Assembly (NCBI GenBank): GCA_019844455.1
Contig: GCA_019844455.1_3938.2
Length of the DNA stretch: 18,746 nucleotides
From: a phage
Direction: 5' to 3' (one strand)
Shown here: one piece after another, positions 15,501 through 17,111 of the stretch
Position numbering within the stretch: the stretch's first letter is position 1
How the letters are laid out: every line of letters starts with the position of its first letter
Translations under genes and position numbers: made by a program
The notes under the pieces: generated by a model
Told to the model about the DNA's origin: nothing
Database searches by the model: none
What the model saw: only the letters and a program-made list of their open reading frames with translations

Positions 15501-17111
15501 ACGTCTATAAAGAGACTCTATACAATCCCTTTCCTTTCCTTCCTAGAATCTATCCCACTAATTCGATAGAGACTATCTCATACCTTAAAAAGCAATAACT
15601 CTATAGTCTACTCTATAACCTCTTATCAAATCAACTTAAATATAAGCCCATAACCCGAAAGGGAAGGGCAACCATTTAAACGCTCTATAAAGCCCTATAA
15701 CAGCCTTATCAACCTAACTTAAGCAATCATATTAACCCACTCTAAAAAGCCCTTTATAGAGCTTCCCAGAGCCTTAAAAGAATCTTATAAGGGTGTGAGC
15801 TTTATCATCTCGTTAGCTATCTTGTGAACTACTAAAAAGGGCTTGTTAGTGTCTTAAAAGTATGTTATAGGGGCTATAAAGTTACTTCAAAGTTACGTAA
15901 AAGAGGCTATAAAGTTACGTAAATGCTAGCCCCCTTAACATTTTCTTAACAATTTCTTAACAATCCCTACATAGTTATGCTTTTAAGGCACTTGTTAGAG
16001 ACTTGTTAGCCCCTTGTTAAATCTCTGTTAAGACCACGTAAAAGCCTTGTAAGAGTCTTTAGCATAGCCTTTAAAGCCTCTGTAAAGCCCTATAAAGAGG
16101 TGTCTGTATAGTTGGGGTGTAATTACTAGGAAGAGACTTAAAAGAGCTTACAAGGAGCTATAGAGAGCTTTTAAGAGGGCTATTTAGAGAATCACTAAGA
16201 GGGAAAGGGAACGATAAGAAAAGAGAAGTTGTGTTTGTAACCAACCACTGTGACCATGTTAATAGCTTGTTAAAAAGATTAAACACTTGTTAGAAACTTG
16301 TTAATTATCTTAACAAAATAACCCTTTAAAATTAACTTGTTAGCTCTTGTTAGTCATCTGTTAAGATTCTGTAAAGCCTATGTATCAACTGTTAAGAACT
16401 TGTTACAACCTTGTTAGTTCTGTTAAGAATCTGTTAAGACCTCTGAAGAGATGTTAAGAGTATGTAGTAGCTGTTAAGAGATTGTTAAGGATATTTTAAA
16501 ATTCTGCAAAGGGATGGTAAGGGAGCTGTTAAGGGCTACCAAGCAGATATACACCCTCAACAGATATTTTTGAGTTCCTTCAAAGACCCTAAAAAATGAC
16601 TTGGTAGTCCTATTTTATAAAAATTTTAAAATTCTGAATAATTACCTAGACAGTCTTTTAAAAATACAGGTAGAAACAGGCTTATAAGATACCTTGTTAG
16701 TACCGTGTTAGACCTTGTGAGATAAGGTCTGTAAAGATATTCCTGTTAAGTTTGTTAAAACAGTCTATATAGAGGCTTAGTAATACCTAGTGAACACCTA
16801 TAGAGGGTAACATAGCTGACATAGAGATTAAGAGGTGTATAGGAGCTTCTAAGAGGGTATAGAGGGATGACTAAGGTGATTGTATAGGCTGTTAAGAAGG
16901 CTTGTTAGAAGAGTGTTTAGAGGGCTTATTAAAGGGCTAGTTAGAAGGCTTATACAGGGGGGCTATTAAGACCACTAGATAGTTACTAAGATACTATATA
17001 GTACTATATAACTATATATAGAGAGTAAGATTAAGAAGGATGTTAAGAAGGATAGATATTTTATTCACATATGATGGTGACCCAGAGGTTGGAACAACCG
17101 ATAAAATTTTT
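15501..17111. other. 1.6-kb ORF-free, repeat-dense non-coding region between convergent terminators
   Basis: The ORF track shows no ORF of 60 aa or more in any frame between the array terminator and the minus-strand terminator. Sequence is dominated by 8-mer words of the form CT....AG (cttgttag, ctgttaag, ctataaag, ctgtaaag, cttataag). Confidence 0.7.
15842..16908. repeat. helically phased array of a degenerate 8-mer (CTTGTTAG / CTGTTAAG / CTGTAAAG; reverse complement CTTAACAA)
   Basis: Copy starts mapped by hand: 15991, 16002, 16013, 16025, 16046, 16069, 16080, 16090; 16266, 16286, 16297, 16336, 16346, 16358, 16369, 16389, 16399, 16410, 16420, 16431, 16471, 16482, 16526; further copies to 16901. 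Spacings are mostly 10-12 bp or multiples. Reverse-complement copies at 15934, 15945, 15956 and 16309. Confidence 0.65.

Follow-up and report, generated by a model that had tools for sequence, protein, structure and literature searches.

A phased array of TGTTA repeats at the putative genome ends of a Felix O1-like phage

Results

The gap and the terminal repeat

The present study concerns a stretch of phage DNA of 18,746 nucleotides (GCA_019844455.1, contig GCA_019844455.1_3938.2; the whole stretch analyzed, hereafter referred to as the window) and, within it, an array of short repeats with the core TGTTA, which an earlier note made from the letters of the sequence had placed at 15842-16908. 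The window belongs to Felixounavirus and matched 269 phage records with identities of 80-92%. Its rightward and leftward gene blocks converge on a gap of 1.67 kb without a credible open reading frame (ORF) at 15488-17156, in which ORFs reaching 40 aa do not begin past 15488, and it is this gap that contains the array.

Several independent records of relatives start or stop inside the gap region. Exact repeats are present at both record ends of phages E9 (580 bp), CRP22 (579 bp), and Ro111lw (613 bp), and in all three alignments base 1 corresponds to window position 15929 and the last base to 16540. In the record of Pr103Blw, a "short direct terminal repeat region" is annotated from the base matching 15929. 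Terminal repeats have also been reported in the literature: a repeat of 608 bp was found in UAB_Phi87 by Bal31 digestion and run-off sequencing (PMC4837284), PhageTerm assigned 613 bp to Ro111lw (PMC6454146) and 581 bp to Pr103Blw (PMC8303462), and the direct terminal repeats of E9 were also derived from PhageTerm (PMC11737134). Regarding Felix O1, "short terminal repeats" were no more than an inference in the genome paper, in which the sequence was opened at rIIA (PMC3185647). On the basis of these alignments, we regard 15929-16540 (612 bp) as the direct terminal repeat (DTR), at which the genome of a Felix O1-like phage physically ends; the earlier note had overlooked this assignment of the array. 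Since the exact terminal repeats of the relatives align to this interval, the window appears to be an assembly collapsed through the DTR with one copy retained. The left part of the gap represents unique sequence that flanks the right genome end, and the unique flank of the left end is the right part. The papers on Felix O1 and UAB_Phi87 were not found to describe the internal array, and neither was the literature on the repeats of wV8/Felix O1.

The features of the gap are listed below, with a slash marking the position of the cut.

15488-15928, no strand assigned: left flank of the gap, unique sequence inside the right genome end with degenerate units of approximately 11 bp (CTATAAAG, CTCTATA, CTTAAAAG)
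15912-15940, no strand assigned: left DTR boundary block AAGTTACGTAAATGCTA/GCCCCCTTAACA, cut between 15928 and 15929; base 1 of the relatives is 15929
15929-16540, + strand: putative DTR, 612 bp, approximately 25 forward TGTWA cores and 3 inverted cores
15935-15963, - strand: three inverted copies of TTGTTAAG, 11 bp apart, at the extreme left edge of the DTR; 2-4 copies in relatives
15991-16053, + strand: cluster A, four TGTTAR cores at exactly 11 bp (15993, 16004, 16015, 16026), followed by TGTAAG at 16048
16255-16305, + strand: cluster B, four TGTTAR cores (16257, 16268, 16288, 16299)
16336-16533, + strand: cluster C, the main array, 15-18 units (CTTGTTAG, CTGTTAAG, CTGTAAAG, and degenerate copies)
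16526-16553, + strand: right DTR boundary block CTGTTAAGGGCTACC/AAGCAGATATACA, cut between 16540 and 16541; the last base of the relatives is 16540
16541-17156, + strand: right flank of the gap, unique and highly conserved non-coding DNA inside the left genome end
17121-17146, - strand: terminator-like hairpin from a terminator scan, which ends the leftward gene block and forms the edge of the apparently untranscribed terminal region

In the record of phage Moogle, terminators are similarly annotated at either side of the homologous gap.

Sequence and phasing of the array

The three words that make up the array are nearly restricted to the gap and to one strand. All nine forward copies of CTTGTTAG in the window, nine of the ten copies of CTGTTAAG, and three of the four copies of CTGTAAAG are located at 15488-17156, and the reverse strand is practically free of the three. 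The degenerate core TGTWAR occurs 31 times on the forward strand of the gap, which corresponds to 18.6/kb vs. 2.5/kb elsewhere (7.5-fold), and successive copies are most commonly 11 bp apart (10 times), followed by 20-22, 31-33, and 42 bp. The array of recurrent words described in the earlier note consequently exists, and the positions that it gave as examples (16389, 16399, 16410, 16420, and 16431) are correct. A four-base Fourier analysis of 15842-16908, a check of the kind that the note had proposed, showed a maximum at 10.4 bp with a power of 6.55, matched by none of 200 dinucleotide shuffles; thus, neither the lack of a peak near 10-11 bp nor an equal density of the word in coding DNA, which the note had named as arguing against the array, was observed. 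The extent assigned in the note is periodic but too narrow because the whole gap from 15488 to 17156 is periodic. The peak was at 10.4 bp in the DTR alone and at 10.3 bp in its core (16250-16540, power 9.22), and was at 11.1 bp in the left flank, where it is carried by other words (again matched by 0 of 200 shuffles), and at 11.6 bp in the right flank. Tandem Repeats Finder resolved the gap into many short arrays of 10-12 bp.

The coding stretch 2501-3567, which was used as a control and covers part of an rIIA-like ORF (967-3333) together with the beginning of the ORF that follows, gave a power of 6.25 at 11.2 bp, probably reflecting protein periodicity. Since this coding control has a similar power near 11 bp, it is the periodic word and not the spectral power that distinguishes the gap. 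In the complete genome of E9 (87.7 kb), 18 of the 19 same-strand TGTTAR pairs spaced by 9-12 bp are located in the two terminal regions, and the interior density is approximately 1/kb.

The forward strand of the DTR carries 20 exact TGTTA cores in addition to TGTAA variants, and the reverse strand carries 3. Cluster A contains the longest chain in the window of direct-repeat (DR)-like elements with a strict spacing of 11 bp (6 elements), and cluster C forms a relaxed chain of 18 elements over 211 bp, the steps of which (9, 10, and 11 bp) average approximately 10.4 bp. The motif phase over the DTR of the window is coherent at 10.42 bp with R = 0.70, against a null of uniform-random positions with a mean R of 0.40 and a maximum of 0.65. 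A comparison with 27 distinct loci from Felixounavirus, Mooglevirus, and Suspvirus revealed a coherent phase of the whole DTR in 27 of 27, at 10.34-10.54 bp with R values of 0.65-0.82, and the best period of cluster C was 10.30-10.48 bp (R 0.73-0.89), also in all 27. The local steps of 9, 10, and 11 bp therefore average to the helical repeat of DNA in solution, and because the mean spacing is approximately 10.4 bp, the sites are located on a single face of the helix, as the earlier note had proposed; the mean period was 10.3-10.5 bp in every locus.

Copies of the unit continue into the flanks in a degenerate but related form (CTATAAAG, CTTAAAAG, and GGCTTGTTAGAA). Forward copies in the right flank start at 16695, 16706, 16730, 16744, 16753, 16890, 16903, and 17041, and an array of GGCTTGTTAGAA with a period of 12 bp occupies 16886-16953. 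The left flank has a single forward TGTTAG at 15844, is C-rich on the + strand, and has a GC skew of -0.33, and the skew of the right flank is +0.35 to +0.42, a change at the gap that is attributable to the switch in gene orientation. The GC skew of 15400-15800 (-0.33) mirrors that of 16600-17200 (+0.42), and the left side carries the words CTCTATA and CCCTATA, the reverse complements of which (TATAGAG and TATAGGG) are present on the right; since the flanks mirror each other in composition and carry reverse-complementary words, large-scale inverted symmetry around the repeat is suggested.

Intrinsic bending, which the earlier note had offered as one explanation, was not supported. In a wedge model, the values of which are approximate, the curvature of the DTR was 20.0 degrees/31 bp vs. 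18.5 in the rest of the window, and the end-to-end ratios were 0.933 and 0.931, respectively; we accordingly rejected curvature as a general explanation because there was no excess over the background. The sole local bend predicted is at 15905-15926 beside the left cut. A tandem duplication of 33 bp at 15874-15926 (GCTATAAAGTTAC(T/G)T(C/A)AA...GCTATAAAGTTACGTAAA), directly to the left of this cut, coincides with the strongest predicted bend of the gap (53 degrees/31 bp; 95th percentile of the background, 36.8). Three other candidates were also set aside: an Rfam scan of 15300-17300 for structured RNA returned a single sub-threshold chance match, promoter-like matches were by-products of the resemblance of TTAACA to TTGACA, and the repeat_region features entered by the depositors of Danish phage records carry no interpretation.

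Conservation in related phages

Both boundaries of the DTR are conserved. The boundary blocks are invariant or nearly so over the 27 loci of the three genera, with TGTTAAGGGCTACCAAGCAGATATACA on the right being invariant in 27 of 27. In each of the 25 loci that were scanned for the boundary words CCCCTTAACA and TGTTAAGGGCTACC, there is exactly one copy of either word. When the cuts are read outward, the reverse complement of the left one is TGTTAAGGGGGC/TAGCA and the right one is TGTTAAGGGCTACC/AAGCA, such that both cut positions directly follow an outward-pointing TGTTAAGGG word. Either an inverted (TGTTAAGGG...C/WAGCA) or a direct (GCTA(G)CC) reading of this symmetry is possible.

The interval between the boundaries varies. 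The inferred DTR length ranges between 567 and 658 bp and fits 569+11k with residuals of no more than 3 bp. The interior of the DTR evolves through the gain and loss of whole units, as exemplified by the 2-4 inverted copies at its left edge. The number of cores nevertheless remained at 22-26 per DTR despite the varying length. The TGTTA cores were conserved at 98.9% vs. 83.7% at the other positions of the DTR, a difference that was not equaled by any of 611 circular shifts of the mask, and the footprint of selection was T-G-T-T-A and the next purine (0.95-0.99), with adjacent positions at the background level (0.84-0.87). The cores consequently behave as selected recognition elements with a footprint of 5-6 bp per turn, in line with the protein-binding sites suggested in the earlier note.

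This pattern bears on the possibility that the array has no sequence-specific reader, but is a tandem repeat produced by slippage that serves as a spacer or as homology for recombination, or that it functions in packaging or ejection through the pure mechanics of DNA. Length variation by whole 11-bp units, including that of the left-edge copies, is a signature of slippage or unequal exchange, the flanks resemble decayed copies of the array unit, and terminal repeats must in any case recombine or anneal into concatemers. However, conservation is far stronger in the core than in the spacers, unlike in neutral tandem repeats, the spacings of 9, 10, and 11 bp maintain a mean of 10.4 bp and not the unit length of 11 bp, and the wedge model provided no special curvature. 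The core also persists in the genus of phage MM7, in which the remainder is unalignable. We consider an array without a reader to be very improbable.

Erwinia phage MM7 (Kolesnikvirus) extends the comparison to a fourth genus. Only approximately 120 bp are alignable, yet a DTR of 444 bp is present. The copies of its left half are in reverse orientation, those of its right half are forward TGTTAAG at 11 bp, and AGATATACA is retained just outside the right cut. The layout is kept across four genera. A phased array was not found at the ends of PaP1, a relative from Pseudomonas; since the terminal repeat of PaP1 is 1190 bp and carries genes (PMC3652863), this comparison is a weak one.

The non-coding flank at 16560-16860 (to 16900) showed conservation of 0.92-1.0, which is higher than that of the terminal repeat and neighboring genes, and this flank might function in ejection or packaging or as an origin. 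If a replication origin were located just inside the left genome end, the repeats would be iterons read by an initiator of the phage or the host, and the AT-rich stretch would be the unwinding element. Phased repeats on the same strand are the classic layout of iterons, TGTTA arrays that resemble iterons are frequent among other viral contigs, and the region is non-coding and apparently untranscribed. The only 40-bp stretch with an AT content of at least 85% in the 18.7-kb window (16604-16652) is located 64 bp past the right edge of the DTR in a flank that is 92-100% conserved, the AT-rich run in MM7 is approximately 140 bp beyond its repeat, and a DnaA-like box with one mismatch is present at 17061. 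Furthermore, the phosphorylated form of the host regulator ArcA (ArcA-P) binds oriC according to a published report (PMC3798270). On the other hand, no initiator gene was recognized in the seven flanking ORFs scanned, the IHF consensus was not found, and the single DnaA box is weak. The change in GC skew at the gap is explained by gene orientation and not by an origin. With 5-6 selected bases, the units are shorter than typical iterons, their number (approximately 28) is far higher, and an origin explains neither the exact bounding of the array by two cut sites nor the outward-pointing copies at both edges. We regard an origin as a rather unlikely account of the array, and a replication role may coexist with end formation.

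Resemblance to ArcA sites

The word that the earlier note had not recognized as a DnaA, IHF, or Fis site, with its core TGTTA at a direct spacing of 11 bp, follows the published grammar of ArcA-P (PMC4173790, PMC3798270). The ArcA-P element is 10 bp in length (ATGTTAAAAA), with TGTTA as its best conserved part and TGTAA being tolerated; elements are spaced by 11 bp from center to center with extra elements at 11 or 22 bp, chromosomal sites contain 2-5 elements, and affinity and cooperativity increase with the number of repeats (PMC4173790, PMC3798270). A spacing of 12 bp at putP was not protected by ArcA-P (PMC3798270). An alternative to a phage-encoded reader is, therefore, that the repeats are sites for ArcA-P, which would polymerize head-to-tail along the terminal repeat, and the terminal repeat of enterobacterial Felix O1-like phages (Ounavirinae) would then be built from sites for ArcA-P, which would coat the ends at low oxygen. 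The regulator may be a host cofactor with an architectural role in end processing, recombination, or packaging, similar to IHF at lambda cos and ArcA at psi. Or the array may be a DNA sponge: hundreds of replicating phage genomes would titrate ArcA-P, such that respiratory carbon oxidation would be freed from its repression, to the benefit of the phage, in a gut that is low in oxygen. We consider this alternative to be unlikely, but serious enough to be weighed in full.

We rebuilt an 18-bp ArcA matrix from 115 published boxes (Table S3), which gave a mean of 15.7 bits and a range of 9.6-21.5 bits and reproduced the published statistics; the range of genuine boxes taken for membership was 9.1-21.4 bits. 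The DTR contains the core TGTTA in direct repeats, as expected of ArcA sites, and its 13 forward boxes scored 10.6-17.9 bits, which is within the genuine range, with those of cluster B reaching 17.7 and 17.2 bits. The inverted triplet at the left edge scored 22.7 and 22.5 bits, above all 115 chromosomal boxes, and its non-core positions also fit ArcA (+5.8 and +5.5 bits). There are 6 boxes of at least 15 bits in the gap vs. 0 in the other 17 kb, and boxes of at least 9 bits are approximately 10-fold enriched. In the whole genome of E9, the top ten boxes are all inside the DTRs, and the density of boxes of at least 14 bits is approximately 80-fold higher there; the DTR of MM7 contains 19 boxes, the best of which scored 20.4 bits, and T7 contains none.

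The distribution of hosts is also in line with ArcA. The hosts named in the records are all enteric (Escherichia, Salmonella, Shigella, Citrobacter, and Erwinia), and the enteric hosts of these phages carry ArcA. Pseudomonas is not known to carry an ArcA-type regulator, and the Pseudomonas relative PaP1 lacks the array. The core is constant across four phage genera, as expected of a highly conserved host reader. HMMER detected no phage-encoded domain of the OmpR/PhoB type (all E >0.8), which we counted in favor of ArcA, and the sensitivity of this search, which used a small profile, is limited. ArcA is an accessory protein for XerCD recombination at the plasmid site psi (bioRxiv 10.64898/2026.02.23.706985), and oriC is among the ArcA binding regions identified earlier (PMC3798270).

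Several findings argue against ArcA. The non-core score of the forward repeats was -1.5 in the window and -2.6 over 80 unique pairs, close to the composition null of -1.9, whereas genuine sites score +3.5 on average; therefore, only the left-edge triplet follows the A/T-rich flank and spacer preferences of ArcA, and the remaining repeats do not. Spacer position 10 is C in 49% of cases in the phage vs. 6% in ArcA sites, and the G of TGTTAG, which is present at 3% in ArcA sites, is conserved in 153 of 156 cells. Among the 24 successive spacings in the DTR, 11 bp occurred 11 times, 22 bp once, and 9, 10, 20, or 21 bp 7 times; steps of 9, 10, and 20 bp are thus frequent, and the flank arrays have a spacing of 12 bp. 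Four TGTTA cores at 11 bp are also present in at least 120 stretches of viral contigs with every GC content, and since it is common in unrelated viral contigs, this grammar is not specific to ArcA. Felix O1-like phages are propagated in ordinary aerobic laboratory culture. ArcA is mostly unphosphorylated under aerobic conditions (PMC4173790), and, thus, ArcA-P cannot be essential for these phages. In the literature searched, we found no relevant paper that pairs ArcA with Felix O1.

The scan of viral contigs for four TGTTA cores at 11 bp, which was intended to separate a host from a phage reader, was rejected for this purpose because matches occurred at all GC contents, and three contigs ending in TGTTAAGGGC proved to be unrelated to the present phage. 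The arrays of viral contigs may be iterons or operator arrays; among the matches listed, six unrelated metagenomic viral contigs (L054, L070, L078, L083, L099, and L100; GC 0.44-0.46) carry an array of a 22-bp unit, TTGTTACAGTTGTGTTAAATNTTTGTTACAGTTGTGTTACA. Two further occurrences of ArcA-type elements were observed outside terminal repeats. In the coding control, four weak ArcA-DR-like elements form a chain at 2501-2556, and the only interior spot in E9 (L032) with two adjacent strong ArcA-type boxes is at 39873-39901 at the end of the tail-fiber region (TTGTTGACTGATTGTTAAGATGGTGTTAA; 16.7 and 15.1 bits).

Neighboring genes and intergenic repeats

PHROGs and Pfam searches of ten ORFs (the seven flanking the gap, 10234-10524, and two upstream of TerL in E9) yielded only families of unknown function or weak partial matches, DUF7217 being the sole Pfam match above the cutoff. 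The analogy with partition centromeres in the earlier note was not sustained because no partition family (Pfam, PHROG) was found in the seven flanking ORFs, and none was present in the annotation of E9. The neighboring proteins are mostly acidic, and the 96-aa product of 10234-10524 is very basic; this basic protein, which the earlier note had put forward as a binder, matched no family, and its low-confidence AlphaFold model (pLDDT 58.9) had no match in the PDB at E <=0.001, results that speak neither for nor against its candidacy.

The gene at 14264-14794 (176 aa) is the only one near the terminal repeat with a conserved position in the four genera, and its product shares 36% identity with that of MM7. 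The protein database lists PF26821 for this protein, and our local Pfam scan did not report this family. In its AlphaFold model (pLDDT 74.7), one helix and a sheet of four strands are combined with a long helical hairpin, and the model had no PDB match at E <=0.001. We abandoned the naming of a binder from the neighboring genes because the families matched were not suggestive of DNA binding and neither of the two models had a structural match.

Three families of intergenic repeats are located between the small rightward genes at 9662-15200, with copies at 9662, 10134, 10513, and 12183, at 11832, 12696, 13628, and 15096, and from 10207 to 15160. In one of these, a module of 93 nt, a promoter close to the consensus (TTGACA...TAAATT) is combined with a GGGGAGGGAA...TTCCC hairpin and a conserved stretch for ribosome binding, and another is a 41-nt CCTAAACTGGAGATTCAAAAATG leader that is present in 7 copies. 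These repeats are probably cassettes of a repeated early promoter and 5'-untranslated region. Repeats of 39 and 57 bp were listed without interpretation in Whichard 2010.

Discussion

In the present study, we tentatively favor the view, to which we assign somewhat less than an even chance, that protein sites arrayed on one face of the helix mark the concatemer junction for end cutting and packaging. A protein that recognizes one element in each helical turn would bind along the repeat in a sequence-specific and cooperative manner and build a nucleoprotein scaffold in the form of a coated or wrapped filament. This scaffold would mark the junction in replicated concatemers and set the terminase nuclease at both boundary sequences, after which the repeat would be duplicated and the unit genome packaged in the T7-type fashion. 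The gain or loss of 11-bp units would be tolerated because the phase is preserved. The default candidate for the binder would be a DNA-recognition subunit of the phage that resembles a small terminase, with ArcA-P of the host as a credible alternative or cofactor; a small terminase has not been identified in Felix O1 (PMC4837284).

The location of the array, its phasing, the selection on its core, the invariance of its boundaries, and the layout conserved in four genera were demonstrated by the comparisons described above, and the bracketing by terminators of a region with no credible ORF is also consistent with a junction. The existence and identity of a binder and its connection with the terminase are inferred, the last of these from the co-location of the array with the ends. 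A number of points weigh against the scaffold that we favor. No DNA-binding family was detected in the ten ORFs scanned, and iteron-like arrays beside an AT-rich stretch would suit an origin just as well. The terminal repeats of PaP1 are made in the absence of an array, and, thus, an array is not required for such ends. Regarding T7, the function of its own array is putative, and genome-wide insertion mapping found most of its end loci to be dispensable. In addition, the conserved boundary words of UAB_Phi87 (locus L029) are 614 bp apart in the deposited sequence, 6 bp more than the published 608 bp, which may be due to the limits of run-off sequencing or to a true shift in the cut position.

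Felix O1-like phages are workhorses for the typing, biocontrol, and therapy of Salmonella and E. coli. The present results provide the exact coordinates of the two putative cut sites and a conserved outward-pointing boundary word, and, thus, a practical rule for locating the true ends in many Felixounavirus records that were opened arbitrarily at rIIA. The 5-bp element, which is present in approximately 28 copies on one face of the DNA, may be mutated or used as bait for the missing recognition factor. If the ArcA alternative is true, these approximately 28 direct repeats will be the largest known array of the ArcA type vs. no more than 5 at chromosomal sites, and a lytic phage that reads or drains a global redox regulator via its genome ends will represent a new form of phage-host coupling, with a bearing on the performance of these phages in the anaerobic gut vs. 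aerated laboratory culture. If it is false, the array serves as a warning that a short core combined with helical spacing may lift position weight matrix scores above those of every genuine site while the flanks do not fit.

Comparison with known systems

An architectural parallel is T7, the concatemer-junction arrays of which are named SRL and SRR in the classical literature. The ends of T7 (NC_001604) carry CCTAAAG-type heptamers on one strand with a period of 13 bp, 3 in the 160-bp repeat and approximately 12 just inside the left repeat. In both phages, a short exact terminal repeat contains and adjoins a strand-biased array of short words in a non-coding region at the site of end formation and packaging, and the flank words CTATAAAG, CTGTAAAG, and CTTAAAAG share TAAAG with T7. 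The likeness is architectural only: the element is TGTTAR and not CCTAAAG, the period is 10.4 and not 13 bp, by which the T7 array is not helically phased, and the two phages are an unrelated myovirus and podovirus. Most copies in the present phage are inside the repeat with inverted copies at one edge, and T7 lacks ArcA-type boxes.

The terminase recognition sites of other phages offer a second parallel. The hexamers of P1 pac, pacL and pacR of SPP1, and the R-sites of lambda cosB (with IHF) are short elements that flank the terminase cut and are read by a recognition subunit; the wrapping of DNA on an oligomer has been proposed in these systems, and a host bending protein is sometimes involved. 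Several copies of a short element near the cut sites are a common feature, whereas P1, SPP1, and lambda have cohesive or headful ends, far fewer elements, and known recognition proteins, and the present phage has exact terminal repeats. Short inverted repeats also bracket the long terminal repeats of the Twort-like phages of Staphylococcus (Kayvirus), for which they have been proposed as a signal for end formation, and the word TGTTAAGGG similarly occurs in opposite orientations at the two DTR boundaries, pointing outward. The terminal repeats of Kayvirus extend over kilobases and carry genes, and no internal phased array has been described in them.

Among non-viral systems, parC of plasmid R1 consists of ten 11-bp iterons in two blocks that are cooperatively coated by ParR. 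The many direct repeats of approximately 11 bp are similar; however, the present array belongs to a lytic phage, coincides with the termini, and has no partition genes in the seven flanking ORFs. ArcA-P operators share direct TGTTA repeats (with TGTAA tolerated), some of which are at 11 or 22 bp in the phage, and the box information of the array falls inside the range of genuine sites or exceeds it. These operators contain 2-5 repeats over promoters, whereas the phage array has approximately 28 in an untranscribed terminal repeat, with spacers richer in G/C, a conserved G that is disfavored in ArcA sites, and frequent steps of 9, 10, and 12 bp. Taken together, these comparisons suggest that the array belongs among the junction repeat arrays of terminal-repeat phages, and that its resemblance to ArcA operators is an unexpected one.

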